A DNA stretch of 64,000 nt from Methanobacteriota archaeon (GTDB taxonomy: Archaea; Thermoplasmatota; Thermoplasmata; UBA10834). The stretch's first letter is position 1; every line of letters starts with the position of its first letter. The translations under genes and the position numbers were made by a program. The stretch lies in the NCBI GenBank assembly GCA_020347565.1, contig CP070732.1:861216-925215 (forward strand), read 5' to 3'. A model generated the notes under the pieces. The model saw only the letters and a program-made list of their open reading frames with translations. It ran no database searches and had not been told where the DNA came from. Positions 15,970-37,639 of this stretch are shown here, piece after piece.

Positions 15970-17088
15970 TTGCCCAAGAGGAAATCATCTGCAGAGGGGA
16001 AGCCCACCTTCGCCGTATTGGGGGCGGGACACGGAGGTCTCGCCATGGCGGGGCACCTCGCGCTCATGGGCTTTCCCACGCACCTGTGGAACCGGTCGAA
16101 GGAGAAGATCGACCACGTGGAGGACCGAGGCGGCATCGACGTCATGGGTGTGGTCGAGGGCTTCGGCAGGCTCGAGCTGGCCACGGCGGACATGAAGGAG
16201 GCGCTGAGCGGGGCGGACATCGTAATGATCGTCGTCCCGGCTTCCGGTCACAAGGACGTAGCCGAGAAGTGCGCGAGGCATCTCAAGCAGGGGCAGCACG
16301 TGGTGCTCAACCCGGGAAGGACTTTCGGCGCCCTGGAGTTCCTCCAGACGCTTCGGAACAAGGGTGTCAGGGGACCGTCCACCGTCTCCGAGGCGCAGAC
16401 CTTCATATACGTTTCGAGGCACACGGACTTCGCCAGCTCTCACATCATGCAGATCAAGAACTCGGTCGCGATGGCCACGATACCTGCGCACAGGACGCCG
16501 AAGGTGCTGAAGGTTGTTACCAGGGCGTTCCCCCAGTTCGTGCCTGCGAGCAACGTGCTGGAGACGAGCCTGGACAACGTCGGCGCGGTCTTCCATCCGA
16601 CCCTCACGCTGCTGAACGCCACGAGGATCGAGTCGACGCATGGCGACTTCGAATACTATCTGGAGGGCGTAACACCGTCGACCGCGAGGATCCTCGAGGC
16701 CGCTGACGCCGAGAGGGTGGCCCTTGGAACGGCGCTCGGCGTGAGGCTGCACACCGCCCGGGAGTGGCTCTACCTGTCCTACGACTCGCCCGGCAGAACG
16801 CTCTACGAGGCCATACAGGCCACACCCGGATACAAGGGCGTGCGGGCCCCGGCTACCCTGACGCACAGGTACATCCTCGAGGACGTCCCGATGAGCATAG
16901 TGCCGATGGTCTCCGTCGGCCGTCAGCTCGGTGTCGAGACGCCGACGCTCGCATCCCTCGTGAACCTGGCCTCGCTGATACACGACAACGATTTCTGGAA
17001 GTCCGGCCGTACGGCTGAGCGGGTGGGGCTGGCCGGAAGGTCGGTGAAGGACATCAGGCTCCTCGCCGTGGAGGGGGCGCGCTCATGA
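15970..17088 (+). CDS. Opine (octopine/nopaline) dehydrogenase-family NAD(P)-dependent oxidoreductase
   Basis: A TTG start is followed by an N-terminal KPTFAVLGAGHGGLAMAGHLALMGFPTHLWNRS Rossmann motif. The ~370-aa length and the C-terminal helical domain are typical of the opine-DH family (the same family as CntM/ODH). A strong GAGGGGGG Shine-Dalgarno lies 10 nt upstream. Confidence 0.65.
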   Translation: MPKRKSSAEGKPTFAVLGAGHGGLAMAGHLALMGFPTHLWNRSKEKIDHVEDRGGIDVMGVVEGFGRLELATADMKEALSGADIVMIVVPASGHKDVAEKCARHLKQGQHVVLNPGRTFGALEFLQTLRNKGVRGPSTVSEAQTFIYVSRHTDFASSHIMQIKNSVAMATIPAHRTPKVLKVVTRAFPQFVPASNVLETSLDNVGAVFHPTLTLLNATRIESTHGDFEYYLEGVTPSTARILEAADAERVALGTALGVRLHTAREWLYLSYDSPGRTLYEAIQATPGYKGVRAPATLTHRYILEDVPMSIVPMVSVGRQLGVETPTLASLVNLASLIHDNDFWKSGRTAERVGLAGRSVKDIRLLAVEGARS

Positions 17089-18743
17089 GGGTGCTTGCAG
17101 CATCCGTTGGCAACTGCGTGCACGTCGCGGGGGTGCAGGCGTTCCTCGACGTGGCCCGGTCTTTCGGCTACGAGACCGTGTTCCTCGGCCCCGCCATGCC
17201 GATCGACAAGCTCACAGGGGCGATAAAGCAGCACGAGCCCGACCTGGTAGCGCTCAGCTACAGACTCAGCGAGGAGAGCGCCAAGGCCGTGTTCGAAGAC
17301 CTGAGGAAGGCGCTCGACAGCAACCCGGACATCGCCGGGAAGAGGTTCCTGTTCGGCGGGACACCGCCCGTCGCCCGACTTGCGCGCGAGTCGGGCATGT
17401 TCGAAGCGGCTTTCGACGGTAGCGAGCCCTTGGAGGTGACGATGGCCGTCCTCAGGGGCAGCGCGGCCGCCCAGGAGGACAGGGTCATGGGCGATACGCT
17501 GATGACACGTCTGCAGACGAACCATCCCTTCCCGCTCATCAGACATCACTTCGGTCAGCCGGACCTTCAGGAGACCATCGACGGCGTGCGGAGGCTGGCT
17601 GAGAGCGGCGCCCTTGACGTCATATCTATCGCCCCTGACCAGAACGCCCAGGAGTCGTTCTTCCGCCCAGACGAGATGGATTCCTCGCTCGCGGGTGCCG
17701 GAGGGGTGCCTCTGAGATCGCAGGACGACCTTGAGGCCCTGTACCAGGCCGCGCAGACGGGCAACAAGCCGTTGCTCAGGTGCTACAGCGGCACGAGGGA
17801 TCTCATCAAATGGGGTGGGATGCTCAAGGAGACCATCAAGGTCGCGTGGGGCGCCGTCCCACTGACATGGTACAGCGAACTGGACAGCAGGTCGAAGCGC
17901 CCGTTGCTGGATGCGATCAAGGAGAACCAGAAGGCCATCAGATGGTATGCGAAGAACGACATCCCGGTGGAAGTGAACGAGTCGCACCAGTGGGCCCTCA
18001 GGAGATCCGGCGACACAGTCGAGCTCGCGACCGCGTATCTTGCGGCGCACAACGCCAAAGCGCTTGGCGTGAGGAACTACGTGTGCCAGTTCATGTTCGA
18101 CACACCGAGGGGAATCTCGCCGGCTATGGACCTCGCGAAGATGTTCGCCAAGCTTGACCTCGTCGAGTCGCTCTCCGACGTCAACTTCAACGTCATCAGG
18201 ATGGTCCGTTCAGGACTGTCGTCATTGTCACCAAAGCCCAACCTCGCCAAGGGACAGCTCGCGGCGTCGATATACTCCGCAATGGCGCTCAAGCCACACA
18301 TAGTCCACGTCGTGGGCTACTCAGAGGCCGACCATGTCGCCACCGCCGACGAGATAGTGGAGAGCTGCGAGCTCGCCAACGGTGTCATCAGGAAGGCTCT
18401 GCTGGGGGTTCCGACGCCCGAGACCGACCCCGCTGTGGCGGAGCGAAAGGCCCAGCTCCTGGCGGATGCCCGGTTCCTGATCGAGGCCATCAAACGCCTC
18501 GAACAGGTGAACACCCACGACCCCCTCATAAGGCCGGAGGTCATCGCGACGGCGATAAAGGAGGGAATCCTGGACGCCCCTGACCTGAGGGGCAGCAGGG
18601 TTGCGAGGGGACGGATCACGACTGCGATGGTCAACGGGGCCTGTGTCCCCGTCGACAGCGCCACCGGCAGGGCGCTATCCGAGAAGGAGAGGATCGACGA
18701 GATAGCCATAAGCGAGAAGGACTTGGACCTGGCGGAGATATAG
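17085..18743 (+). CDS. Glutamate-mutase-like fusion protein: N-terminal GlmS-like B12-binding Rossmann domain (variant C-x-H-x-x-G motif) plus ~420-aa C-terminal domain (possibly GlmE-like TIM barrel)
   Basis: The N-terminus RVLAASVGNCVHVAGVQAF...LGPAMP...PDLVALSYRL...FLFGGTPP aligns to the GlmS sequence IVLGVIGSDCHAVGNKIL...SSLYG...LLYVGGN as I recall it. The remainder has weak, order-consistent resemblance to GlmE, also judged from my memory of that sequence. The start overlaps the opine-DH stop (ATGA). Confidence 0.45.
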   Translation: MRVLAASVGNCVHVAGVQAFLDVARSFGYETVFLGPAMPIDKLTGAIKQHEPDLVALSYRLSEESAKAVFEDLRKALDSNPDIAGKRFLFGGTPPVARLARESGMFEAAFDGSEPLEVTMAVLRGSAAAQEDRVMGDTLMTRLQTNHPFPLIRHHFGQPDLQETIDGVRRLAESGALDVISIAPDQNAQESFFRPDEMDSSLAGAGGVPLRSQDDLEALYQAAQTGNKPLLRCYSGTRDLIKWGGMLKETIKVAWGAVPLTWYSELDSRSKRPLLDAIKENQKAIRWYAKNDIPVEVNESHQWALRRSGDTVELATAYLAAHNAKALGVRNYVCQFMFDTPRGISPAMDLAKMFAKLDLVESLSDVNFNVIRMVRSGLSSLSPKPNLAKGQLAASIYSAMALKPHIVHVVGYSEADHVATADEIVESCELANGVIRKALLGVPTPETDPAVAERKAQLLADARFLIEAIKRLEQVNTHDPLIRPEVIATAIKEGILDAPDLRGSRVARGRITTAMVNGACVPVDSATGRALSEKERIDEIAISEKDLDLAEI

Positions 18744-23879: not shown

Positions 23880-24518
23880 TCAGCCGCGGGCCCCCTTGAT
23901 CAGCGTCCTGGACACCACACCGCCCACCACGGTCAGGTCCTCCGTGGGCAGTATCTTCGCAGCGCTCGCGTCGTACAGAATGCTCGCTGAGGCAGACACC
24001 TCGGAGTCACCGAGCCAGAGTATCACGGCCACTGGCAGCCTGTCGAAGAAACGGACCTTCACGCCGACTGTACCCACCTCCAACGGTTCAGCGTTCAGCT
24101 TGGCCGCCACACGCCTCAGGCGCTCCGGGCTGAGCCCGAACTCCTCGACCAGTGGGTCAATGGTCCTCGCCTTGAAGGCCGGGTAATACAGCGCCCCGCC
24201 TGACAGCTCGCGGAAGGAGATGAGGCGGTCGGTCAGCTGCGTCTTGGTCGCCCCGGCGAGGTAGTGCAGTATCAACACCTGAAGGAACCTGGGGACCTCG
24301 GGGCCACCCAAATCGCTGTACGTGACCGCCTTCCCGCTCAGGTCAACGAAGCACTCGTCGTTGAGCATGGCAAGGCGGAGAACTGAAGGTCTGCCGTCGA
24401 CGACCGCGCCGAGGTCCTCTGCCAGCTGCCGAGGGTCCAGTTCTTCCAGGGCGGCCCACGCGAGCTCAAGCGCGTCCGTCAAGGGCGCCTTTCTGCCCGA
24501 TCCGACCCGCACCGTCAT
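23880..24518 (-). CDS. Conserved hypothetical protein co-transcribed with acsE (possibly DUF3786-family, acs-cluster associated)
   Basis: The 212-aa protein has a start that overlaps the acsE stop (ATGA). The family assignment comes from my recollection that DUF3786 genes accompany acs operons. It was not verified. Confidence 0.45.
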   Translation of the reverse strand: MTVRVGSGRKAPLTDALELAWAALEELDPRQLAEDLGAVVDGRPSVLRLAMLNDECFVDLSGKAVTYSDLGGPEVPRFLQVLILHYLAGATKTQLTDRLISFRELSGGALYYPAFKARTIDPLVEEFGLSPERLRRVAAKLNAEPLEVGTVGVKVRFFDRLPVAVILWLGDSEVSASASILYDASAAKILPTEDLTVVGGVVSRTLIKGARG

Positions 24519-25291
24519 GCCCTCAGGAACGAAGGCGCGTAGAGCTTCCTGTTGAGGAGCACCTCCGCCGCCTTCACCACCTTCATGAGCTCGGCGTCGT
24601 TAGGGTCCACGATCGCCGCATCTAGGCCCCTCCCGAGCAGCATGGCGAGATATGTCCGGTTCAGCAGCGACCGCTCCTCCGCGCCGCTCGAGACGTTGCT
24701 GAGACCGACTACAGTCTTGGGCGACGGGTCGTTGAGCGTTCTGAAGGATGTTATCGCGTCGCATACGTCGGGGCACTGGCTCTGGGCGGCCGATATCGGC
24801 AGCACAACCGGGTCGAGGTACACCTTCTCCGGAGGTATGCCCTGGTCCATGGCCGTCGCGAGCAACAACATGGCAATCTCCGTACGCCCCTCCGCGGAGT
24901 TCGGTATGCCCTTCTCATCGATGGTGAGACAGACTATCTCGGCGTTATGCTCCTTCGCCAGTGGGAAGAACTTCTCCATGCGCTTCTGCTCTGCCGTGGT
25001 CGAGTTGATCAGGGGCTCGCGGTTGCACGCAGACAGCCCGGCCGTCTGCGTCTTGAGCCCGGGTGAGTCTATGCAAAGCTTGACGTCGGCCACGTCCTGG
25101 ATCGTCTTGACGAGCCACGCGATGGCCTCCTGGGCGTCGTCCCTTCCCGGACCGGTGTTGACGTCCAGCACGTCCGCGCCGCCCTCGATTTGCTCGTTCG
25201 CAAGTCCCTGGATGTACTTCTCGTCGCGATCGTCTATGGCCTTCGCGACCTGTGGGAACTGACCGTTGATCCTCTCGCCTATCACTATCAT
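24515..25291 (-). CDS. acsE: Methyltetrahydrofolate:corrinoid/iron-sulfur protein Co-methyltransferase (pterin-binding, DHPS-like)
   Basis: The protein reads MIVIGERINGQF...GADVLDVN...LCIDSP...INSTTAEQ...FPLAKEH...DPVVLPISAAQ...VGLSNVS...RTYLAMLLGRGLDAAIVDP. This is co-linear with Moorella AcsE (MLIIGERINGMF...LDLNVG...LCLDST...NSTNAERE...). Length is 258 aa. Confidence 0.9.
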   Translation of the reverse strand: MIVIGERINGQFPQVAKAIDDRDEKYIQGLANEQIEGGADVLDVNTGPGRDDAQEAIAWLVKTIQDVADVKLCIDSPGLKTQTAGLSACNREPLINSTTAEQKRMEKFFPLAKEHNAEIVCLTIDEKGIPNSAEGRTEIAMLLLATAMDQGIPPEKVYLDPVVLPISAAQSQCPDVCDAITSFRTLNDPSPKTVVGLSNVSSGAEERSLLNRTYLAMLLGRGLDAAIVDPNDAELMKVVKAAEVLLNRKLYAPSFLRA

Positions 25292-25427: not shown

Positions 25428-27338
25428 ATGTCTGGTGAGGAGGAGGGGACCCTTTGCACGGTGAGTTTCTCACCTGACGGCGTCGCCGTCGAGATGGTCA
25501 GAGGCACTACCATCCTCGAGGCCTGCAGAGCCGCTGGCATAGCCATAGACGCTGTCTGCGGAGGCACCGGCAAATGCGGCAGATGCAAGGTAAGGCCGAA
25601 GGGGCTTTTCGACCCCGGAGACACCTCCGCCCTCGCCGAGGAAGAACGGGAGTCCGGCGTGGTCCTGGCGTGCGAGACGTTGGTGACCGGCGACCTCGAA
25701 GTGGAGGTGCTGCCGCGCTCAAGGATACGCGAGCATCAAATCCTGACCAGGACGCTGGAGACGCCGGTCGTCAAGCTGTCGCCCTGGGTCAGGAAGGTTC
25801 TGCTGGAGCTCCCGAAGGCCACCCTCTACGACAACACGGCGGATTTCGAGAGGGTCCTGCGAGCGCTAGGCGATAGGAACCTCGAGATGCCCATAGTCAC
25901 GCTCCGCAACATGTCGAACGTCCTGCGGGAAGGCGGGTGGACCGTGACGGCGACGGTGGCCGACCTGAAGAGCAGAGGCGAGATAACGCGTCTCGAGCCC
26001 GGGGACAAGTGCGGCTGCCTCCTGGGGGTCGCGATCGACATCGGCACGACGACGGTCGTCGGGCAGCTTATCGACCTGCTGACGGGCGATGTGCTCGCCA
26101 GCGCATCCGAGTACAACAGGCAGATATCCAAGGGCGAGGACGTCATCGCGAGGATGATGTACGGCGAGGAGAACGGCGTTGGGGAGCTGACGGACCTCGC
26201 GAGAGAGACTGTCAACTCGGTCATCGGCAGGCTGCTGGAGGACACGTCGAAGGAGCGGGAGTGTCCCGTCACCGCCGTCGACGTCGTCGGTGCGGCCATC
26301 GCCGGCAACACGATAATGACGCACTTCTTCGTAGGCGTCGATACGCGCTTCATACGGCTCGAGCCGTACGTTCCCGTAGCCCATCACATGCCGCCGCGCA
26401 GCGGCCATGACCTCGGCATGGAGGCTCACCCATCCAGCGATGTGCTCCTGTTCCCGTCGAGGGCGGGCTACCTCGGCGGAGATGTCGTGGCAGACGTGCT
26501 CGCGAGCGGCATTCACAGGAGCGACGACCTCGCGATGCTGATAGACGTGGGCACCAACGGCGAAATCGTCCTCGGGTGCAGGGAGTGGCTCGTGTCCTGC
26601 GCGTGCTCCGCCGGGCCTGCGTTCGAGGGCGGGGAGGTGTCGTCCGGCATGAGGGCCATGCATGGCGCGATAGACAGCATACGCGTCAACCACGACTTCG
26701 CAACCTCGTACCATGTAATAGGCGATGAGCGGCCGAACGGCATCTGCGGGTCCGGGCTAATAGACCTGATCGCGGAGATGTACGAGAACGGCGTGATAGA
26801 CCGCAAAGCTCGGATACAGCGGCTCCAGACGGACAGGGTAAGGGAGGGCGAGGAAGGGCTGGAGTACGTCGTCGAGTTCCAAGGGAGCCTCGGCGAGGGC
26901 GCGACCGGTGACCTCGTCATAACCGACGCCGACCTGCAGAACGTCCTCAGGACGAAGGCCGCGATCTTCGGCGCAGCGACGGTCCTGCTCAGGAAGATGA
27001 GCGAAGACCTGGACGGCATCGACACGTTTGTGATCGCCGGGGGGTTCGGCAACCACCTCGACATAGACCGCGCCGTCTCTATCGGTATGTTCCCTGACAT
27101 ACCAAGGGACAAGTACAGGTTCATAGGCAACGGGGCCCTCGAGGGCGCGAGGCTCGCTCTGCTCTCAGAGGAGATGCGGAAGGACATGGTGGAGATATTC
27201 GACCAGATGACGTACATCGAGCTGAGCGTGGACAACGACTTCTACGACGAGTTCACCTCCTCGATGTTCATACCGCACACGGATCTCGCGAAGTTCCCCA
27301 GCTTCAAAGACAGAGGGTCACAGGAGACGGCGAGATGA
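25428..27338 (+). CDS. Reductive activator of corrinoid protein (RACo/AcsV): N-terminal [2Fe-2S] ferredoxin + ASKHA ATPase (DUF4445)
   Basis: The N-terminus carries plant-type ferredoxin cysteines (CGGTGKCGRCKV...C). The ~630-aa length matches RACo. The ATPase-like middle and C-terminus and the location inside the acs cluster also fit. Confidence 0.8.
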   Translation: MSGEEEGTLCTVSFSPDGVAVEMVRGTTILEACRAAGIAIDAVCGGTGKCGRCKVRPKGLFDPGDTSALAEEERESGVVLACETLVTGDLEVEVLPRSRIREHQILTRTLETPVVKLSPWVRKVLLELPKATLYDNTADFERVLRALGDRNLEMPIVTLRNMSNVLREGGWTVTATVADLKSRGEITRLEPGDKCGCLLGVAIDIGTTTVVGQLIDLLTGDVLASASEYNRQISKGEDVIARMMYGEENGVGELTDLARETVNSVIGRLLEDTSKERECPVTAVDVVGAAIAGNTIMTHFFVGVDTRFIRLEPYVPVAHHMPPRSGHDLGMEAHPSSDVLLFPSRAGYLGGDVVADVLASGIHRSDDLAMLIDVGTNGEIVLGCREWLVSCACSAGPAFEGGEVSSGMRAMHGAIDSIRVNHDFATSYHVIGDERPNGICGSGLIDLIAEMYENGVIDRKARIQRLQTDRVREGEEGLEYVVEFQGSLGEGATGDLVITDADLQNVLRTKAAIFGAATVLLRKMSEDLDGIDTFVIAGGFGNHLDIDRAVSIGMFPDIPRDKYRFIGNGALEGARLALLSEEMRKDMVEIFDQMTYIELSVDNDFYDEFTSSMFIPHTDLAKFPSFKDRGSQETAR

Positions 27339-28093
27339 ACTCGTTCACCATAGCGGTAGCAGGCAAGGGCGGCGTAGGCAAGACGACCTTCGCCGCGCTT
27401 GCGATAAGGCACCTTCATCACATCACGGGTGAGGTGATATTGGCCGTCGACGCCGATCCCAACGCCAACCTGCACGCGAAGCTCGGGACATCGCCGAGGA
27501 GGACCATCGGCGACATCAGGGAGGAGCTGCTCGTTGAGGCGGACCAGCTGCCTTCAGGAGTTACGAAGCAGGAGCATGTCGACTACCAGATACGGCTGGC
27601 GCTGGCTGAGGGCGACGGGTTCGACCTCCTGACGATGGGGAGGCAGGAGGGGCCTGGATGCTACTGCTATGTGAACAACATCCTCAGGACCTTCGTTGAC
27701 TCCCTATCCGAGAGATACGCTTACGTTGTAATAGACAACGAGGCGGGGATGGAGCACCTCAGCAGGAGGACGACGAGGACCTCGGACGTCCTGTTCGTCG
27801 TCTCCGACGCGTCGAAAGCAGCGGCGGACTCCGCGGTCAGAATCGCGGCGTTGGCAAAGGAAATGGATCTGGGCATAGGTAGGACCGCCCTGGTAAGGAA
27901 CATGCTCCCCCCCGACTCGGACGGGCAGGATGCGCCAGCGGGCTTCGATGCCGCATACGCCGTGACGGCCTCCGCGGCCATACGCTCCGGGAGCATGCGG
28001 AGCGAGTCCCTCCTCGACATACCCCAGCACGACCCCACATATCAGGACATATCGAAGGCCTTGGACGAGGAGAGAAAGCTGGCAAGGCAATGA
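27335..28093 (+). CDS. cooC: CO dehydrogenase/ACS nickel-insertion accessory ATPase CooC/AcsF (MinD/ParA family)
   Basis: The protein begins MNSFTIAVAGKGGVGKTT and has the LAVDADPNANL and CYCYVNNIL (CxC) motifs of CooC. The ATGA overlaps the RACo stop. Confidence 0.85.
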   Translation: MNSFTIAVAGKGGVGKTTFAALAIRHLHHITGEVILAVDADPNANLHAKLGTSPRRTIGDIREELLVEADQLPSGVTKQEHVDYQIRLALAEGDGFDLLTMGRQEGPGCYCYVNNILRTFVDSLSERYAYVVIDNEAGMEHLSRRTTRTSDVLFVVSDASKAAADSAVRIAALAKEMDLGIGRTALVRNMLPPDSDGQDAPAGFDAAYAVTASAAIRSGSMRSESLLDIPQHDPTYQDISKALDEERKLARQ

Positions 28094-28236: not shown

Positions 28237-29562
28237 TCATGCCAGAGACTTCATCATCTTCGGCAGCCCGGACGACTCCCTCGGCCCGACGGTCACCTTG
28301 AGGTCGGTCAGCTCGTTCAGCTTGCCGCTCATTCTGCTAACCATGCCCGGGATGATGATCTCGTTCCTGTTGCTCTTCTCCTTGACCTTGAAGTCGTCCA
28401 CCGCCTTGGCTACCGACTCCGGCGTCATCTTGCCAGCGGCGAAAGCCGTCATGACGGACTGTCCCTCGGTATCCACCACGAGTAGCCACGCGGGCACCTT
28501 GCTCTTCTCTATGTCCGCACGCACGGTGAAGTACGTCAGCGAGAAGTTCGTGGTGAACATGACAGGCGACGACTCCGTCGGCTCGCCGACTGGGTACAGC
28601 CCTGGCTTGACCTGGATGGGCACTTGCGGGTCGGTGTATATGTTCTGTCTCAGGGCGAGGAGCGGATACACGAAATCCCTCGGCATCTCCTCCATCATGA
28701 TGGCGGATGCGTACTTCATCACGCCCAGTGAGGCATTCATCTTGTCCGCGGTCGACGACCCGAGCACCGCAATCGTCGGGAAGCCGAGCGGCCTGAATTT
28801 GCTCTTTATCGCGGCCCGGCGTATCACCGTCATGTTCTCAAGCATCTTCCCGGAGCTGTCGATCGGCGGCTCGAGGAGCACGTCGCTCAACCCGGCCTTC
28901 TTGGCTCGCTCCGACAGCTCGACGAGTTCGTCCAGGCCGGCGACACCACCTACCACGAGCGGGAGCGACCGGCCCTTCGCGAGTTCCGCCATCGCATCGA
29001 AGTTCGCGCCTGTCGCGCGGTAGAGCAACGGCTTCTTGTCGGCGCACGCATCCGCCGCCTTCGCCGCCAGCGCAGCGTCCTCGCACATCAGCACGATGGG
29101 AAGCTCCTTGCCTGCCGCGGCCTTGACGGCCTCGAGGTAGTCCTCCTCGCTTCCGGACGAGTGCCGCAGGGCCACGGAGTCCACGCGCAGGATCTGACCC
29201 ACCCGCTCGAACGCCGCGGAATGGGCGTCATCGACCCTGGTCCGCATCGCCTCGAGTCCTGCGGAATCGTCGGCTATCAGGCCCAGCACGGTGGGGTTGT
29301 AGAAGGTCTTGTCGTGTCTGAACAGCTGCGTCTCGTCCCCCATCTTGACCGCCAGCTCGCCCGAGCCGATCGTGACGGAGCGGATCGGCGGAGCACCGCT
29401 CTCCTCGAGCTGAGCCTTCGCCTCATCGCTGACGGACGGACAGGCCTCGAGGGACACTTTCTGGTTGGCCAGCTGCATAGCGAATGCGAGGCAGGTTGGA
29501 AACTTGCACTCTCCGCAGTTCGTCTTCGGGAGCAGTTTGTAGATCTCCATCGCAGTCGGCAT
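28237..29562 (-). CDS. acsC: Corrinoid iron-sulfur protein large subunit (AcsC/CdhE)
   Basis: The N-terminus is MEIYKLLPKTNCGECKFPTCLAFAMQLA, the [4Fe-4S] motif of the CFeSP large subunit. A TIM-barrel and B12-binding C-terminus follow. A GGAGG Shine-Dalgarno lies inside the acsD 3' end, with a 1-nt gap. Confidence 0.88.
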   Translation of the reverse strand: MPTAMEIYKLLPKTNCGECKFPTCLAFAMQLANQKVSLEACPSVSDEAKAQLEESGAPPIRSVTIGSGELAVKMGDETQLFRHDKTFYNPTVLGLIADDSAGLEAMRTRVDDAHSAAFERVGQILRVDSVALRHSSGSEEDYLEAVKAAAGKELPIVLMCEDAALAAKAADACADKKPLLYRATGANFDAMAELAKGRSLPLVVGGVAGLDELVELSERAKKAGLSDVLLEPPIDSSGKMLENMTVIRRAAIKSKFRPLGFPTIAVLGSSTADKMNASLGVMKYASAIMMEEMPRDFVYPLLALRQNIYTDPQVPIQVKPGLYPVGEPTESSPVMFTTNFSLTYFTVRADIEKSKVPAWLLVVDTEGQSVMTAFAAGKMTPESVAKAVDDFKVKEKSNRNEIIIPGMVSRMSGKLNELTDLKVTVGPRESSGLPKMMKSLA

Positions 29563-29563
29563 C

Positions 29564-30517
29564 TCACTCGCCTCCTGCCAGGGATTTGAGCGTATCCCTC
29601 AGCATCTTCACCGATTCGGGATGGCGCATCACCACGATGCCCGCCCCGGCTACCGCCGCCGAGAGAGCTGTGATCGTCTCCCAGTATATCCCGCGCATCT
29701 TCACGTCGCCGTGCTCCGGATTCTCCTCCAACGCCTCCGGCACGGTCCACGCGCACGAGCAGTCGCATATCATGGGCATCTGCAGCACGGGATCGCCAGA
29801 CAGCGCCCCGAGTCGCAGGCGTTCGATGTTCGAGTAGGAGTATTCCAATCCCATGCCGAGCGGCGCCATGAGCGGGTCCATGAGGATGTTCTCCGGTTTC
29901 ATGCCGAAGTCGAGCAGCAGGATGTTCATCTGCTTCGCAAGGTTGATGTCCAGGTTGGAGAACGCCACGATACCGTGGCCGTTCGCCATCGACGCGGCAG
30001 CGAGAGACTTGTATGCCTTCTCCTCGGCGAGCCCGAGAAACAGCCGCTCGCCCTTGGCAACGTTGGACACCTTCTCCATGACCTTCGCGTCCTTCTCCTC
30101 GAACCCGCACCCGTAAACTGCGAGCGGTAAAGCGGTCGTCTGAAGCACCTTCGACACGAGCGCCTCGAGCTCCTCAGCGGGCCTGTCCTCCTCCTCCGGA
30201 TTTGCGGATGCAAGCTTGAGGACGCACATATCCGCGCCCCACTCGGCCTCGCACTTCTTGGCCCATCCTGCTGGGTCGGCAAGCGACGGCCCCATCGTCT
30301 CCTGAAGACGCTCAGGCACCATCCGCATCGTGTCAACGACGTCCATCGCGACCAGCGGCATGGGCCCCGACTCCCCCTCGAACAGATGGAAGGGAAGGCC
30401 GTTCGACCCTCCCGCGACGAGCTTGGCGCGCCTGGTTCCCCCGTATTCCTTGGTCGCGCCTATCGCGACCTCCTTGATCCGTCCTCCAAACTTCTCCTTT
30501 GGCACTTCAAATCCCAA
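29564..30517 (-). CDS. acsD: Corrinoid iron-sulfur protein small subunit (AcsD/CdhD)
   Basis: The 317-aa TIM-barrel protein sits immediately upstream of acsC and downstream of the CODH/ACS gene. The start is TTG with AGGGGGA upstream. Confidence 0.85.
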   Translation of the reverse strand: MGFEVPKEKFGGRIKEVAIGATKEYGGTRRAKLVAGGSNGLPFHLFEGESGPMPLVAMDVVDTMRMVPERLQETMGPSLADPAGWAKKCEAEWGADMCVLKLASANPEEEDRPAEELEALVSKVLQTTALPLAVYGCGFEEKDAKVMEKVSNVAKGERLFLGLAEEKAYKSLAAASMANGHGIVAFSNLDINLAKQMNILLLDFGMKPENILMDPLMAPLGMGLEYSYSNIERLRLGALSGDPVLQMPMICDCSCAWTVPEALEENPEHGDVKMRGIYWETITALSAAVAGAGIVVMRHPESVKMLRDTLKSLAGGE

Positions 30518-30538: not shown

Positions 30539-33500
30539 TCAATTGATCATCGGCGGCATCTTCAGCGCGGGATGGTCGACCTTGGCCATCCACTCGGTGA
30601 GCTCCTCAGGCGTGCGAGCGACCGTCTCGTCGGCGATCTTCTCGATGAAATCCGAGATGCCGAGCTCCTCGGCGCGTCTGGTCAGCTCTTCCTTCATGGC
30701 CTCCTTGAGGTCCTTCGGCATCCATACGATCCGCTCGAAACCGCCGTCCGCGGTGATGAACTTCCTGCTGACCAGGTACTTCCTCCCCACGCCTATGAAC
30801 CCGGGCGTCTGTATGCCTCCTCCGACAGAGCCTGCGAGCGTCGAGAACGTCATGCCGATGGGCGTCATGCCCGAGTACTCCCTGTTCACGACGACCACGC
30901 CCTGCAGGTCCGCGGACACCGCGACGATGCACTCGAAGCATCCGCAAGACGTCATCGGGTCGTCCATCATCGTGTACGCATTGAACTTCTGCAGCTTGCC
31001 CATGGTCTTCTCCGTCACCGCCTCGTTAACGCCGACCCATTGCCCCTTCACCTCGTCGATCACTTCCTTCTTGGGGACCGGGTTGTTCGGACCCGTAGGC
31101 GCGATCTGGTACGACGCCTTCGCGTCGAGCCAGTTAATGGCGCCGCACAGACCGAGCCTCTCCGGCGTGACGATGCACAGATGCCCTGGGGCGAAGCTCT
31201 GGCAGAGCGTGCACGTGTAGAACGTGTCCACCTTCTCGTCCGTGAGGTCGGCTATCCTCGCGTCCCTCTTGGCATACGCCTCGTTCGCCTCGTCGACGTG
31301 TTTCCTCAGCTCCGTCTCGTCCGTGACGATCTTGACCTCCACCTTCGACACTATCGCCCCGAACTCCTCCTTGAGCTTGGTCACCAGTACGTCCCCGATG
31401 TGCTTGAGCCTCAGCCCGGCCTTGACCGAACTCTTGCTCAGGCGGACCCACAGGAGGTTCCTCTGGCCCGTGTGCCAAGTGCCCTCGGCGAAGTTGACGA
31501 ACTGGTGTATGCGGCGCTCCAGCACGGACTCGAAGTCGTCCTGCATGTTCTTGCCGTACACGTTTACCAGTATGCCTAGGTGCGTGGACGAGCCCTCGGC
31601 CATCTCGTCGACGTCCTCGCCGATCAGAGTCACCTGGCCGTCCTTGACCTCCTCCGACCCGCTCATCTTCAGCAGCTCGAACGCCAGCGTCTTCGACGGA
31701 CCGCCAGCCTCGATGTGCATGTCCGGCCGCCTTATCGTCTCGCCTTCGAACGCCGGCCCGTAGGCGACTGGCAGGTCGACTGCCCCCAGCTTGATCCTGC
31801 AGCCTCGGATCTCGATCGCCGTGGCGATCATCTCGTCCAGGTTCTTCTGCACGACGTATTTGTCTGGGATGGGCTCGACTTCCTGGTCGGTTATCGTCGG
31901 CGAGCCGTTGAACATGACGGCGAACTCGGCCGCCACCTTGATGTGGTCGAGCGGGCCCATCTGCAGTACGAAGACCTTCGGCCGTTTGGAAAGGTAGTTG
32001 TACAGGCCCTCGCGGTCGCCCTTCTGTATGCCTCCGAAGGACAGCGCCGCCCTGATGGCGAAGTTCAAGCCATGAATCACCTGCGTGAACTCCCCCACCG
32101 GGTAGAGCATCCTGTCCAGTCCCATGGCGATGTTCTCGTCCTTCAGCTGCTTGATGATGTCATAGGTGGCGATGATGAGCATTCCCTTGTTCTGACAGTC
32201 GCGTATCATCGCCGCGAGCTTCTTCGGATCGGAGGCCTTGCCGACGAACACGGCAGCTCCGGGTATCGTGTCGTCTACGAACGCGATCCCGAGCTGCCTC
32301 AGTATCCTGTCGGGAACGAAGCCGCAGTACGGCGAGCCCTCGTACGGCGCGGGGTTGTCGATGTACTTGAGTGCCTCGACGATCTCCGCCGCCACCATGG
32401 TCGCCTCACCTGAGGCGACCGCTGCCTCGAACGTCGGCTCCTCTACTATCTTGCCCCGCACGTCGCCCAGCATCTTTGGCAGGTTGCCCAGTCGCGTGCA
32501 GTCCTCCCCGAGCCACGCGAACAGGCTCGGGAGCTGATAGCCCGTCTCGGGGAACTCTATCGTCTTGTCCGGCCCGTGCTTCCGCAGCGCGCGGCTGAGC
32601 AGGAAGTCGGCGTATCCGGTCGCGATGATCGAGCCCTCGACAGCCATCCTGTAGAGCTGCTCGTTCGTGACCTTGCCTTTGTCGGGAACGCACATCGCCT
32701 CCCGTTCGACCGCCGGGTCGGTGAGGTCCAGCTTCCATCGCCTGTACTCGATCGCCGAGTAGAGCCGCTTCGCCGCGACGACCGGGTCCTTCTCGAATAT
32801 GAAGTAGCCGCCGTAGACGTCCCTCGCAGTGTTCTCCAGCACTTCGGTCACGAGGGTGCTTCCATACAGGTAGTTGATCGTGCCGACATGGACGGGGAAT
32901 CCCATCGTGACGGCCCATGTTCCGATGGACACGGCCTTTTCGTGCATCGCCTCTGGGGCGGCCGCTACGAACGGTATCTGGTGGATGTCGACGCCCAGCC
33001 TGTTCGCGACCTCCGTCGCCAGGTTGGAGTACCTCGGGTTGTCGACGCACGAGCCGATATGCCACACGCAGGGCAGGCCGTCCACGCCCGCGGCCTCGCT
33101 CAGCTCGGAGAGGAACGACCTCAGCCCCTCACCGGCCGCCTCGCCAACCTTCGCCGGATCCATGAATCCTGCCTTGGCGAGCTCGATGGCGTTGCAGCCG
33201 GTCGCGAGCACCAGCACGTCCCTCTTGACCAGCTCCGCCACCATCGTGATGACGTCCTCGTCCTTCTCCGTACGAAGGTTCTTGCATCCAGCGAAGAGCG
33301 CCAGACCGCGGACCTTTCCGCTCATCATGTTGCTCACGATGTGCTGGAAGGGGTCGTCTGGATTCGCTTTTGAGAACAGCTCCCGCATCTGCTCCACGCT
33401 GAAGCCGGCGACGACCTTCGCAGGAGTGACGGTCGGCAAACGCCTCATGTCGCCCCTGCGCTTGTACGCCTCGAGCGCGAGCAGTAGTATCTCGCGAGCG

Positions 33501-34675
33501 GACTCGCGAGCGTGCTCCGGGATCACCTCTATGTGCGTGTCACCTACGAGACGTGCGGCCGCCTCCGTGCTAATCAGCCTCGTATGGGTGCACTTCGACA
33601 GCGCCGAGAGCGCCGGCAGGAAGCACTGGTAGTCCAGGACCATAGCGTCGAGCAGGCCGCTCAGCAGCACTAGCTCCTGCGCCATCACGTTCGACGCGAT
33701 CGGGATCCCCTTCCGCATGAGTATCTCGTTCCCGGTGCAGCAGACGCCGACGATGTTGAACCCTTCCGCGCCGGCCTTCTTCGCCTCATCCCTCATCTCG
33801 CGGGCGACATCGACCATGATGTCGCTGAGGATTGGGTTGTGGCCGTGCACGGCGACGTTGACGCTCTTCTCGTCGAGCACGCCGAGGTTCGCCTCGCTCA
33901 GGACGACCTTCGGCGTCCCGAAGAGCACGTCGCTCAGGTCGGACGATATCTGTGCGCCAGTGTAGTCCGCAAGTGCGCATCGGATGCCAGCGAAGAGCAT
34001 GGGCACGGGGTCCGCGTCCACGCCCATCGCGGTCCTGTGCATGACGTCGGTTATGACCGACTCGATGTTGTATGGCATGACACCGTGGGAGTCCCACAGG
34101 GCCATCCGCTTGTTGGTTACGGTGGACTTGAGGAACGATAGGGGCTCGTGCGTGTACCTCGAGTAATCGTCGAGGGCCGCGCGGGCCACATCACCGGCCA
34201 GCGCAAGCGTCTCCTTGCCATCGGCTTCGATGCCGAGTTTCTTCGCGATGGCCTGTAGCTTTGTGGGGTCCGTCACTGTGTAGTCTTTGGCCACGCCTCC
34301 CGAGACCTGCAGGAGGACCTCCGCAACCTCCTTGCCATGGTACGAGTGCGATGCGGTCCCGCCGACGATCATCCTGTCTATGTGCCTCGCTACGATCGTG
34401 TAGTCCTTTGCGCCACATATGCCCGTGGTCGGCTCCTTGCCCATTGGGTTGATTCTGCACGGACCCTGGAGGCATATCCTGCAGCACAAACCCAACTTGC
34501 CAAACCTGCACTGGGCGCCTTGGTTGTCCGCACGGTCGTACACTGTGCAGACCTCTTCCCCACGCAGCGTCGTGAACATCTCGCTGCAGCTGCCGTCCCA
34601 AAGCCCGGCAACCCTGTCCTTCTTGCCTTTCGCTGCGGTCTCGGTCGCCCGTGCCTCGCCTCCGTCCATCGTCAT
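30539..34675 (-). CDS. acsAB: Fused bifunctional carbon monoxide dehydrogenase (AcsA/CooS-like, aa ~1-600) / acetyl-CoA synthase (AcsB-like, aa ~600-1378)
   Basis: The N-terminus has the CooS motifs CRFGKLGLCCRICLQGPCRI and ...VAVHGHNPILSD.... The C-terminal ~780 aa are co-linear with Moorella AcsB, including the A-cluster motifs CTLCQSFAPGHLCIVTPERLGLCGAINWLDAKASY and PMTSCGCFECIV. It is one continuous 1378-codon frame. An AGGAG Shine-Dalgarno lies 8 nt upstream. Confidence 0.88.
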   Translation of the reverse strand: MTMDGGEARATETAAKGKKDRVAGLWDGSCSEMFTTLRGEEVCTVYDRADNQGAQCRFGKLGLCCRICLQGPCRINPMGKEPTTGICGAKDYTIVARHIDRMIVGGTASHSYHGKEVAEVLLQVSGGVAKDYTVTDPTKLQAIAKKLGIEADGKETLALAGDVARAALDDYSRYTHEPLSFLKSTVTNKRMALWDSHGVMPYNIESVITDVMHRTAMGVDADPVPMLFAGIRCALADYTGAQISSDLSDVLFGTPKVVLSEANLGVLDEKSVNVAVHGHNPILSDIMVDVAREMRDEAKKAGAEGFNIVGVCCTGNEILMRKGIPIASNVMAQELVLLSGLLDAMVLDYQCFLPALSALSKCTHTRLISTEAAARLVGDTHIEVIPEHARESAREILLLALEAYKRRGDMRRLPTVTPAKVVAGFSVEQMRELFSKANPDDPFQHIVSNMMSGKVRGLALFAGCKNLRTEKDEDVITMVAELVKRDVLVLATGCNAIELAKAGFMDPAKVGEAAGEGLRSFLSELSEAAGVDGLPCVWHIGSCVDNPRYSNLATEVANRLGVDIHQIPFVAAAPEAMHEKAVSIGTWAVTMGFPVHVGTINYLYGSTLVTEVLENTARDVYGGYFIFEKDPVVAAKRLYSAIEYRRWKLDLTDPAVEREAMCVPDKGKVTNEQLYRMAVEGSIIATGYADFLLSRALRKHGPDKTIEFPETGYQLPSLFAWLGEDCTRLGNLPKMLGDVRGKIVEEPTFEAAVASGEATMVAAEIVEALKYIDNPAPYEGSPYCGFVPDRILRQLGIAFVDDTIPGAAVFVGKASDPKKLAAMIRDCQNKGMLIIATYDIIKQLKDENIAMGLDRMLYPVGEFTQVIHGLNFAIRAALSFGGIQKGDREGLYNYLSKRPKVFVLQMGPLDHIKVAAEFAVMFNGSPTITDQEVEPIPDKYVVQKNLDEMIATAIEIRGCRIKLGAVDLPVAYGPAFEGETIRRPDMHIEAGGPSKTLAFELLKMSGSEEVKDGQVTLIGEDVDEMAEGSSTHLGILVNVYGKNMQDDFESVLERRIHQFVNFAEGTWHTGQRNLLWVRLSKSSVKAGLRLKHIGDVLVTKLKEEFGAIVSKVEVKIVTDETELRKHVDEANEAYAKRDARIADLTDEKVDTFYTCTLCQSFAPGHLCIVTPERLGLCGAINWLDAKASYQIAPTGPNNPVPKKEVIDEVKGQWVGVNEAVTEKTMGKLQKFNAYTMMDDPMTSCGCFECIVAVSADLQGVVVVNREYSGMTPIGMTFSTLAGSVGGGIQTPGFIGVGRKYLVSRKFITADGGFERIVWMPKDLKEAMKEELTRRAEELGISDFIEKIADETVARTPEELTEWMAKVDHPALKMPPMIN

Positions 34676-34994: not shown

Positions 34995-35025
34995 CATCGG
35001 CGCGCGCCGATGAGGGCGCGCCCTC
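34995..35025 (-). terminator. Two abutting perfect GC-rich palindromes (CATCGGCGCGCGCCGATG and GAGGGCGCGCCCTC) immediately after the cooC2 stop, followed on the mRNA by TGTTTTTAAG
   Basis: The palindromes were read directly from the sequence. Hairpins plus a T-tract resemble an intrinsic terminator or RNA-stability element between cooC2 and the acsAB promoter region. Confidence 0.35.
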
Positions 35026-35836
35026 ACACGGCGTCAGAAACCCTATCGAGCATGCGCTGAATCTCATTCGAGAGACCTCTAACGGGGGATTCCCAGTCCT
35101 TCGCGGCATCCATCTGGAAGACAGACCTACCTTCGATGTCGGCCCTCGCCACAACCTCGGACCGGGGGAGCGCGAAAGACAGCTCGAGGCCGTGCTCCGC
35201 CAGCATCGACCGTATGGCGCGCTCGTCATGCTCACCGGTCACGTGGTTGGCCACGACGGCCATCCTCTCCAAGCCCATCTCCCGGGCGAGGGCTGCGATC
35301 CTCCTGCCCGTGTCAACGGCCCTCGCGCTGGGCCCGACGACTATCAGCAGCAGGTCGACCCCTCTGCAGGTCGCCCTCCCAAACTGCTCCAGCCCTGCCT
35401 CCATGTCTACCAGGACCGCGTCGTCCCTCTCCAGTATAATGTGGTCGAGCAGCGCTCGCAGGATGGCGTTCTCGGGGCAGAAACAACCGCTGCCTGCAGC
35501 GCGAATCGTTCCCAGGACAACGAGCCTCACGCCGTCCGCGCCCTTGACGGAGTACGCATCCGGAATGTCATCGACCTTAGGGTTGAGCTTGTAGAAGGGA
35601 CCGGTCGTAGCGCCTGGCCTGGAGCCCGTGCGCTCCTCGATCAGGTCGAGCTCAGCCGAGATCGGCTTCGGAACTCGGTCGAGCGGCACTTCCAACACGG
35701 AGTGGAGATGCGAGGCGGGGTCCGCGTCGACTGCTAGCACCTTCATTCCGTCCCGAGCCCACACGCGGGCCAAGGAACCGACGACGGTCGTCTTGCCGAC
35801 GCCGCCCTTGCCGGCGACGGCTATCTTGTAGCCCAA
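35024..35836 (-). CDS. cooC: Second CooC-family Ni-insertion ATPase
   Basis: A TTG start gives the N-terminus LGYKIAVAGKGGVGKTTVVGSLA. The VLAVDADPASHL motif is present. A CxC-like 'GSGCFCPENAIL' motif fits CooC. Upstream ORF codons lack homology. Confidence 0.75.
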   Translation of the reverse strand: MGYKIAVAGKGGVGKTTVVGSLARVWARDGMKVLAVDADPASHLHSVLEVPLDRVPKPISAELDLIEERTGSRPGATTGPFYKLNPKVDDIPDAYSVKGADGVRLVVLGTIRAAGSGCFCPENAILRALLDHIILERDDAVLVDMEAGLEQFGRATCRGVDLLLIVVGPSARAVDTGRRIAALAREMGLERMAVVANHVTGEHDERAIRSMLAEHGLELSFALPRSEVVARADIEGRSVFQMDAAKDWESPVRGLSNEIQRMLDRVSDAV

Positions 35837-35841
35837 TCCAC

Positions 35842-36039
35842 TCAGCCCTTCCCTGGCTTTAGGAGTATCTCGTGCTTGACCAGGTTCGCCTCGTCGAGCA
35901 CGGCACCCTCCACGAGCTTGCGCTCCCCGAGGGTGTCCAAACATACTACGCCCTCCGGGACGATCATGACCTTCGCCGCCTCCTGCATTACCAGGGTGCG
36001 TTCGTCTCCGCTTACCAGATAGACTGCCGATTCACACAT
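35842..36039 (-). CDS. cooT: CooT-like small nickel-binding protein
   Basis: The 65-aa protein starts MCESAVYLVSG... (Cys2). Its size and alternating hydrophobic pattern resemble RrCooT (MCMAKVVLT...). It is co-transcribed upstream of cooC2. Confidence 0.55.
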   Translation of the reverse strand: MCESAVYLVSGDERTLVMQEAAKVMIVPEGVVCLDTLGERKLVEGAVLDEANLVKHEILLKPGKG

Positions 36040-36498: not shown

Positions 36499-36747
36499 CG
36501 AAAACTCCCCCGAGGGCGTCTTTCCAGGATAATGCGATGCCATGTATATATTCTGTACCCAAGACGCTGCGATTGTCGACTCCGACACGGAGCGCGGTTG
36601 CCAGAACTCGTAACGTCGTGCGTGCTGCATCATAGCGTGCTATCACGGCTCTATCGATTGGCTTTCGAAACAGCGGACGGGTCGGCGATCGACCGCAAGC
36701 GAGATTACCACGTTCCATGCTACTGAGGATGAGAGGCTGAAAGGACC

Positions 36748-37524
36748 GTGCCGCCCAGGATCTCCTTTGACCACGTGGCAGATGTGTATGATGAGACGAG
36801 GGCGTATGCTCAAGGCGTGACGGACCTGATAGGCGAGGCGTTGGAGAGGGTCGTCTCGAAGGAGTCGCGACTGCTCGAGGTCGGCGTGGGCACGGGGCGG
36901 ACTGCCCACCCGCTGACTGAGAGGGGATTCGACATCACAGGCGTCGACATATCGACAGGGATGCTGTCGAAGGCGAGGGCCAAAGGCCTGAGGAGACTGC
37001 TCATCGCCGATGCGACAGCGCTCCCGTTCGCCGACCTCGCGTTCGACCATGTCCTCAGTGCGCACCTCACACATCTCATCAGCGATTGGCGCCATGCCCT
37101 GGCGGAGATAGGCCGCGTCGCGAGCGGGCTCTATCTTTCGGTCATCAACGAGAGGATAGGGTGCCAGGCCGAGGAGATGCAGAGGGCGTATGAGGATCTG
37201 TGCGCCGAGGACGGCTTCGAGGTGCGCCATCCGGGCATGAGGGAGAGGGAGATCGCTGACATCGTGGCACCGCTGAAGACGATCGACATCGCCGACAGCA
37301 CCGAGAGCGTCCCCGTGGAGAAGGCGATAGGGCGGTACAGGTCGAGGTGCTTCTCGGACCAGTGGAGCGTGCCGGACGACGTGCACGAGAACGCCATGAG
37401 GAAACTGGAGAGGATGTACGCTGGCGTTAAGGAACTGGACCGCAGGGAGAAGACCCGGCTCTTCATCTGGAGCGCAGGCTATATCCGGGAGTGCGCATCC
37501 GAGCCTGTGCGCACGCCCGAGTGA
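36748..37524 (+). CDS. Class I SAM-dependent methyltransferase
   Basis: SAM-binding motif I reads LLEVGVGTGRTAHPL. Motifs post I and II (DISTGML; RLLIADATALPFADLAFDHVL) follow. The start is GTG with an upstream GAAAGGA. Confidence 0.7.
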   Translation: MPPRISFDHVADVYDETRAYAQGVTDLIGEALERVVSKESRLLEVGVGTGRTAHPLTERGFDITGVDISTGMLSKARAKGLRRLLIADATALPFADLAFDHVLSAHLTHLISDWRHALAEIGRVASGLYLSVINERIGCQAEEMQRAYEDLCAEDGFEVRHPGMREREIADIVAPLKTIDIADSTESVPVEKAIGRYRSRCFSDQWSVPDDVHENAMRKLERMYAGVKELDRREKTRLFIWSAGYIRECASEPVRTPE

Positions 37525-37639
37525 AGCGGCCACTTTCGCCTGCCTGCAGCGAATCGCTTTATATCATCGGAGCTTGTGTATTCACCTGGCAGCAGAGTGT
37601 AACAAACGGCTGCCTGAACACACGCAGAGGGGGTTTCTG

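Follow-up and report, generated by a model that had tools for sequence, protein, structure and literature searches.

Closest Described Systems

Carbon monoxide dehydrogenase (CODH), together with acetyl-CoA synthase (ACS), forms the very ancient CO2-fixing machine at the core of the Wood-Ljungdahl pathway, and the loss-free passage of CO from CODH to ACS is an active structural question. This study concerns acsA::acsB, a gene in which both enzymes are encoded as one chain. It lies in a 64,000-nucleotide stretch of an archaeal genome (Methanobacteriota archaeon; GTDB Thermoplasmatota, UBA10834; assembly GCA_020347565.1, contig CP070732.1, positions 861,216 to 925,215). This whole stretch is referred to as the window, and its numbering is used unless another locus or contig is named.

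In Moorella thermoacetica and Carboxydothermus hydrogenoformans the two enzymes are separate polypeptides assembled as AcsA2AcsB2 (1MJG, 1OAO, 7ZKJ), as a preliminary description of this DNA had said and as the distinct PDB chains bear out; no solved chain in the PDB spans both halves. The window enzyme resembles these systems in having both catalytic modules, an ACS whose three domains include the tunnel-bearing A1, all cluster ligands and the partner genes acsC, acsD, acsE, RACo and cooC. Its AcsB half aligned end-to-end with 7zkj_B (809 bits), and its CODH half aligned with 7zkj_A and 1mjg_A (630-645 bits). Unlike these two-chain bacterial enzymes, it is a single chain, with 13 residues between the aligned cores, and its host is an archaeon.

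The archaeal acetyl-CoA decarbonylase/synthase (ACDS; CdhABCDE) shares the overall chemistry, and the A2-A3 domains of ACS are homologous to CdhC. In contrast to that complex, the CODH of the window is not of the CdhA type, its ACS keeps A1, and its methyltransferase AcsE is of the tetrahydrofolate (THF) type. CdhC is described as lacking the A1 domain (PMC13370988).

The nearest recorded relatives are two CODHs from 'Euryarchaeota archaeon RBG_16_62_10' and 'RBG_13_57_23' (OGS41472.1, OGS44063.1), which Inoue et al. 2019 (PMC6344411, Supplementary Table 1) flagged as "fused with ACDS beta subunit". Both are in the 'others' category; a manual search for fused Ni-CODHs is all that the main text mentions, and it describes no CODH-ACS fusion. 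They belong to the same family as the window protein, with CooS followed in frame by full AcsB, and come from different species. The protein at the RBG_13_57_23 locus (L023) shares 76% identity with the window protein in an alignment that crosses the junction, and it falls in the same clade for both halves in neighbour-joining (NJ) trees. The breadth of the family, its connector, its split sister clade and its uniqueness are not part of those entries.

Fused Gene and Junction

Positions 30539..34675 on the minus strand form one ATG-initiated open reading frame (ORF) of 1378 codons plus stop (stop codon 30539-30541), with zero internal stops. The preliminary description had reported a single 1378-aa ORF and gave no strand; the minus-strand translation is uninterrupted, and a plus-strand reading was ruled out, its translation being full of stops. 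The covalent CODH-AcsB fusion it had claimed was likewise borne out: both modules are complete and score above the curated hidden Markov model cutoffs of their families, at values where a chance match is of no concern, and the same in-frame fusion occurs in sister genomes. The separate AcsA and AcsB polypeptides of the canonical α2β2 complex are lacking, as the product comes from a single ORF, an arrangement kept in at least 116 clusters of homologues. We consider it very probable that acsA::acsB is a genuine, evolutionarily stable gene fusion encoding a single polypeptide of ~150 kDa, a complete bifunctional CODH/ACS.

The two halves meet in a connector at aa 651-671 (DLTDPAVEREAMCVPDKGKVT; 32663..32725, minus strand). 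A fusion point was correctly anticipated, although it had been placed near 32,900, ~200 nt from the actual site. The phrase 'essentially no linker' is fair. Against the C. hydrogenoformans references, the AcsA alignment ends at query residue 658 (residue 660 of 669) and the AcsB alignment begins at query residue 672 (residue 18 of 730), with just 13 residues between the aligned cores; the unaligned termini of the separate C. hydrogenoformans proteins amount to 9 and 17 residues. Of all internal segments, the connector shows the lowest conservation in the homologue alignment (0.46 vs ~0.75 elsewhere). Its sequence varies and its frame is always kept: among 114 proteins the span from the invariant RRW to A[IV][ED]G measured 24-35 residues, and all indels were in-frame multiples of three.

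A poorly conserved segment of this kind could be a site of proteolysis or of internal initiation, either of which would yield separate AcsA and AcsB and an ordinary α2β2 enzyme. The window does contain GGGAGG 2 nt upstream of the ATG codon of Met661 (32690-32710, minus strand; codons 656-662), resembling an internal ribosome-binding site. However, the 2-nt spacing is poor, and Met661 and its Shine-Dalgarno (SD)-like motif are kept only in the window protein and its closest relatives, so a conserved internal start was rejected as a family feature. Nor did a Pfam scan find a protease or intein-like element at the junction of the window protein, and AlphaFold2 predicts the connector as an ordered, packed segment containing a short helix (predicted local distance difference test, pLDDT, 86-97) rather than an exposed loop. 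Separate products from this gene are therefore improbable, and a single fused chain is the reading followed below.

Catalytic Modules

The Ni,Fe-CODH module, of the CooS/AcsA type, occupies aa 29-650 (32726..34591, minus strand). TIGR01702, the model of the anaerobic CODH catalytic subunit, matched aa 29-650 with 663.8 bits against a cutoff of 478, and the Pfam Prismane/CODH family matched aa 63-631 with 492 bits. The archaeal CdhA model TIGR00314 reached 54 bits against a cutoff of 781.3, which sets the module apart from CdhA-type CODHs with extra E and F clusters. The AlphaFold2 model of the CODH half gave a template modelling (TM) score of 0.96 against solved CODHs, including C. hydrogenoformans CODH-II. 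The CooS motifs that had been quoted for the first ~600 aa were recovered, with CRFGKLGLCCRICLQGPCRI spanning aa 56-75 and HGHNP spanning aa 277-281.

Alignment to CODH-II (1su6) placed the metal ligands and catalytic residues individually. The D-cluster is assigned C56/C64 (CODH-II C39, C47), the B-cluster C65/C68/C73/C87 (C48, C51, C56, C70) and the C-cluster H279/C313/C351/C464/C494/C543 (H261, C295, C333, C446, C476, C526), and the acid-base residues are H110 and K580 (H93, K563). Upstream of the module, an N-terminal extension (aa 1-28; 34592..34675, minus strand) is weakly conserved (mean 0.26 for aa 1-25) and was modelled with pLDDT 47-67. C30 and C43 in the N-terminal region ('Cys3 motif' of Inoue's note) are not among the conserved columns of the 53-homologue alignment. 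In one fused homologue (P0010, 1434 aa; L016 10372-10614) the CODH module carries an insertion of ~30-55 residues, placed between the counterparts of aa 132 and 181.

The ACS module was recognized by two AcsB models, NF040764 (aa 680-1377, 956.7 bits, cutoff 800) and NF007078 (aa 672-1377, 950.5 bits, cutoff 809), and by the Pfam families CODH_A_N (PF18537; aa 693-772, 87 bits), CdhC (PF03598; aa 968-1122, 211 bits) and ACS_CODH_B_C (PF19436; aa 1134-1377, 403 bits). Its N-terminal, CODH-docking and tunnel-bearing domain A1 covers aa 672-959 (31799..32662, minus strand), contains PF18537 and aligns to residues 18-310 of an isolated A1 construct (9fu4_B). Domains A2-A3 with the A-cluster follow at aa 965-1377 (30545..31783, minus strand), where the alignments to 3git_A (residues 7-419) and 7zkj_B coincide with PF03598 and PF19436. 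With residues 18-728 of 7zkj_B aligned, the three-domain AcsB architecture including A1 (prismane-like plus Rossmann) is complete. TIGR00316 (CdhC) also matches aa 967-1372, and the presence of A1 distinguishes the module from a CdhC-type ACS without that domain. The A-cluster has its [4Fe-4S] ligands in C1155-x2-C1158-x8-C1167-x9-C1177 and its Ni-binding site in C1244-G-C1246, in agreement with the earlier report of full-length AcsB, in the same frame, with both A-cluster Cys motifs.

One of the modules could be catalytically dead and kept as a scaffold only, so that, for example, a monofunctional CODH would carry an ACS-derived appendage or vice versa; many Ni-CODH structural groups have incomplete cluster motifs (Inoue et al. 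2019, PMC6344411). Here, in contrast, no ligand of the C-, B-, D- or A-cluster is missing, the catalytic His and Lys are present, and all these residues are invariant or nearly so in 53 fused homologues. Both halves score far above equivalog cutoffs, and the complete set of partner genes lies alongside. The two halves also evolve congruently, as seen in the congruent NJ trees of the CooS and AcsB halves, with conservation being stronger in AcsB. Loss of either activity is very improbable on this evidence, and both catalytic modules are, to judge from their conserved residues, intact and under purifying selection.

Some fused homologues are ~520 aa longer. P0085 (1894 aa), P0110 (1896 aa), P0289 (1894 aa) and P0122 (1155 aa) are listed with the intein/LAGLIDADG domains PF14890 and PF14528, and it looks as if an intein is inserted in the ACS half of these CooS-AcsB proteins.

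Conservation and Uniqueness of the Fusion

Homologues of the window protein were sought among 5.8 billion proteins, and the 120 matches listed, each a 90%-identity cluster, were 56-100% identical to it. All four Pfam domains were present in 120 of the 120 matches listed, and 116 of them measured 1250-1450 aa. When one genome per GTDB species was scanned by tblastn, 44 loci were obtained, and in 30 of these a single high-scoring segment pair ran across the junction. The 30 fused loci come from different projects and assemblers (e.g., megahit k141 and SPAdes NODE contigs) and include isolate UBA10834 (L005, 86% identical), RBG_19FT_COMBO_56_21 (L012) and RBG_13_57_23 (L023). Source labels in the family comprise Methanobacteriota, Thermoplasmatota, Thermoplasmata, Methanomassiliicoccales, Bathyarchaeia and Halobacteriota metagenome-assembled genomes (MAGs). 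The survey of related genomes that had been suggested for this locus thus found the in-frame fusion in at least 116 full-length clusters and 30 species-level loci; rather than being consistently split, sister homologues were consistently fused, with split genes in a small related Thermoplasmata subclade and in an Actinomycetota relative.

A sequencing or assembly indel that deleted the acsA stop or changed the frame could make two ordinary genes look fused, but the probability of this is negligible. The source is a ~1.97 Mb single-contig MAG, possibly long-read based, and a 1-nt error could merge the adjacent, overlapping acsA and acsB seen in some relatives (L030-L032, L039). Such an error in the window is excluded because the same in-frame junction appears in at least 116 independent 90%-identity clusters and in 30 species-level loci from independent assemblies, built with different assemblers, the junction indels are all multiples of three, and the fused forms lack the SD-bearing tail of the split forms.

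Uniqueness was assessed by a phmmer search with residues 50-1200 against 1.84 billion 50%-identity representatives. The only full-length representative spanning both halves was P0117 (1375 aa); the shorter P0121 and P0124 also cover the junction. Other strong matches were CooS alone (~600-680 aa), AcsB alone (~650-745 aa) or different architectures, and no independent CooS-then-AcsB fusion outside this family was found among the 1.84 billion representatives. The order CooS then AcsB in one chain is, by this sequence search, confined to one protein family.

Among the different architectures were the long AcsB or CooS representatives P0125, P0127 and P0131 (844-878 aa), P0144 (1122 aa), and P0139, P0147 and P0151 (1209-1276 aa), in which CooS has N-terminal extensions of 250-500 aa or AcsB has C-terminal extensions of ~500 aa. 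Another fused CODH, the CooS of Desulfomonile tiedjei (WP_014808137.1), is listed with an ACDS delta subunit fused N-terminally (Inoue et al. 2019 table, PMC6344411). It resembles the window protein in joining a CODH/ACS component to the CODH catalytic subunit and differs in that the partner is AcsD, not AcsB, and stands at the N-terminus. P0144, with CooS at residues 501-1112, and similar long representatives may be of this type.

Previous Records and Annotation

Targeted full-text searches and targeted reading found no published discussion of the fusion beyond the supplementary-table entry of Inoue et al., and an earlier mention is possible. For these archaeal groups a 2026 preprint records AcsB and makes no mention of a CODH fusion (PMC13370988). 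Papers on MAGs of Yaplasmales, of UBA10834 and sister orders and of Gimiplasmatales give CooS/Acs genes and leave the fusion unremarked (PMC11264602; bioRxiv 10.1101/2020.03.09.984617). IMG annotates many members with both functions. NCBI names denote one half only, 'anaerobic carbon-monoxide dehydrogenase catalytic subunit' in some cases and 'ACDS subunit alpha/beta' in others, and gene counts by name may consequently score acsA or acsB as missing in metabolic reconstructions.

The fusion is conserved, family-specific and previously flagged but uncharacterised, an already recorded kind of architecture. The preliminary description had implied more novelty than this: the fusion is widespread in archaeal MAGs, IMG names both functions, and two members had been listed (PMC6344411).

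As a natural fusion, the protein would offer a fixed α:β ratio and a fixed CODH:A1 contact, useful for cryo-EM and tunnel kinetics, and would allow the bifunctional enzyme to be expressed from one gene. It may also serve as an architectural marker for widespread uncultured sediment archaea (Ca. Gimiplasmatales and relatives), for which acetogenic or methylotrophic lifestyles have been proposed (PMC11264602).

Structural Model and Proposed Mechanism

The AlphaFold2 model of aa 20-1000 had a mean pLDDT of 84.4 and a predicted TM score (pTM) of 0.89. The latter suggests confident packing of A1 against CODH in the model, and together with the pLDDT of the connector it indicates a predicted arrangement in which the connection is ordered and packed and A1 is confidently placed, unlike beads on a string.

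According to the proposed mechanism, CO2 would be reduced to CO at the C-cluster, and CO would travel through the tunnel of the permanently attached A1 to the A-cluster. There it would be condensed with CoA and a methyl group, brought by AcsCD from methyl-THF via AcsE. AcsCD, AcsE and RACo would supply and maintain the methyl donor, and the cooC-type ATPases would insert nickel. The polypeptide is expected to dimerise through its CODH module, giving a homodimer equivalent to the α2β2 complex of Moorella and Carboxydothermus, because two protomers contribute their Cys56/Cys64 to the D-cluster, the arrangement of all CooS-type enzymes. The fusion would fix a 1:1 stoichiometry and prevent ACS from dissociating from CODH. 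From the conserved ligands and from the confident inter-module packing and ordered connector of the AlphaFold2 model, we infer that it hard-wires both the CO channel and the stoichiometry, as the preliminary description had supposed.

Split Relatives and Origin of the Fusion

Four Thermoplasmata MAGs (L030, b1.sp2_bin.40; L031, E29_bin30; L032, RS_14_3; L044, bin24) have the same neighbourhood, with acsA and acsB present as separate ORFs that differ in frame. They share gene order and the flanking acsD and acsC with the window, and their proteins are as close to the window protein as are distant fused members (CooS 50-52% and AcsB 67-68% identical). Their junctions lie at 11840-11960 in L030, 11850-11970 in L031 and L044, and 3857-3977 in L032. 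Unlike the fused genes, they have a GGAGG-like motif and the stop codon within a longer CooS tail, and the stop overlaps the AcsB start (ATGA) or sits 5 nt ahead of it; by this layout the split acsA and acsB are translationally coupled. The fused forms lack the SD-bearing CooS tail. In L030 and L032 the CooS tail carries a YW(T/S)G motif, corresponding to YWDG/YWNG in the connector of one fused clade.

Adjacent, overlapping acsA and acsB in this order also occur at an Actinomycetota locus (L039). This locus had appeared as a fusion in tblastn (residues 32-1378) and was rejected as such, since it consists of two overlapping ORFs in different frames. In bin24, CooS and the first ~170 aa of AcsB are at L044 (CP070767.1 1500519-1522979), and the rest of AcsB (equivalent to aa 820-1377) with acsD and acsC is at L033 (CP070767.1 333929-355602), right after a run of N. 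Behind this 'split AcsB' there may be an artefact of masking or assembly, or else a rearrangement running through acsB; it was handled as a masking or assembly issue rather than as biology because the run of N is immediately upstream of the fragment.

In evolution it is common for adjacent, translationally coupled subunits of a tight complex to become fused, and the present case is unsurprising in principle. It would have arisen from adjacent, coupled acsA-acsB by loss of the stop codon and of the SD-bearing tail. The connector would then correspond to the former CooS C-terminal tail joined to the AcsB N-terminus, a reading suggested because the split relatives carry coupled genes, have the SD motif and stop inside the CooS tail, and share the YW(T/S)G motif.

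Several points qualify this account of structure, function and origin. The intact ~150 kDa product is a prediction from the gene sequence. The AlphaFold2 run was of a monomer and a truncated construct (aa 20-1000; CODH, connector and A1) with a 53-sequence alignment; the connector may join ACS to its own (cis) or to the partner (trans) CODH protomer. The sequence fits acetyl-CoA synthesis or cleavage, the reverse reaction being equally possible. As for origin, the bipartition uniting all fused forms appeared in 2% of NJ bootstraps for the concatenated halves, 30% for the CooS half and 0% for the AcsB half, with a single distant outgroup. The split subclade appears nested among fused lineages in these trees, which weakly favours secondary fission or more than one fusion. 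For the order of UBA10834-type MAGs, mixotrophy or methylotrophic acetogenesis has been proposed (PMC11264602; bioRxiv 10.1101/2020.03.09.984617).

A tentative extension, which we hold to be possible though not the likelier course, is that the fusion is ancestral in an old archaeal AcsA/AcsB lineage spanning several phylum-level labels, that its ordered connector locks A1 on CODH, and that the two-gene subclade arose by secondary fission, rebuilding an SD motif and a start codon inside the old connector. If so, fused and unfused forms would make a natural pair for testing the effect of the tether on CO channelling or leakage, and the lineage would provide a single-gene CODH/ACS for heterologous expression.

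Gene Neighbourhood and Host

The fused gene is flanked by the genes expected of its pathway. Upstream lies a CooC-like P-loop ATPase, a putative Ni-insertion maturase (35024..35944, minus strand), which matches CbiA/ParA/NifH-like families and keeps this position in fused loci. Downstream on the minus strand, acsD for the small subunit of the corrinoid Fe-S protein (29564..30517; PF03599; NF003376, 342 bits, cutoff 280) starts 22 nt after the fused gene and is followed by acsC for the large subunit (28237..29562; PF04060 and PF03599; NF003195, 539 bits, cutoff 306). On the plus strand are a second CooC/AcsF-like P-loop ATPase, cooC2 (27335..28093), and the adjoining RACo/AcsV, the reductive activator of the corrinoid protein (25428..27338; Fer2 and three RACo domains; NF040756, 597 bits, below the 800-bit exception cutoff); the pairing of cooC2 with RACo is conserved in fused loci. 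The methyl-THF:corrinoid Fe-S protein methyltransferase gene acsE (24515..25291, minus strand; PF00809; NF005719, 294 bits, cutoff 259) is directly followed by a DUF3786 protein (23880..24518, minus strand; PF12654), co-conserved in most fused loci that extend far enough.

Going by these family assignments, cooC, acsA::acsB, acsD, acsC, cooC2, RACo and acsE make up a complete carbonyl-branch cluster, and most fused loci of sufficient length keep its gene order. No CdhB was found among the scanned ORFs near the acs genes, where no search aimed at CdhB was made. The window also contains archaeal markers, namely PurP-type DUF1246/DUF1297, EMG1/NEP1 and an OB-fold protein resembling RPA. That an archaeon is the host of a bacterial-type acs cluster was overlooked in the preliminary description. 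Similarity to L005 and L012 places this host, most probably, in the order UBA10834 (Ca. Gimiplasmatales).

Some features around the cluster deserve mention. At L045 7589-8017, in a distant clade of fused genes represented by P0109 (312 member sequences), the upstream cooC gives way to a CooF-like poly-ferredoxin that overlaps the start of the fused gene. In the window, a 296-aa ORF upstream of cooC (36643-37533, minus strand) has no Pfam or NCBIfam match, and ORFs 30-40% identical to it stand at the same place in many fused loci. On the other side, ~6-7 kb from the acsE/DUF3786 end of the cluster, a 552-aa ORF (17085-18743, plus strand) has an N-terminal B12-binding domain (PF02310) as its only Pfam domain and no NCBIfam match, and it possibly encodes a corrinoid-dependent enzyme.

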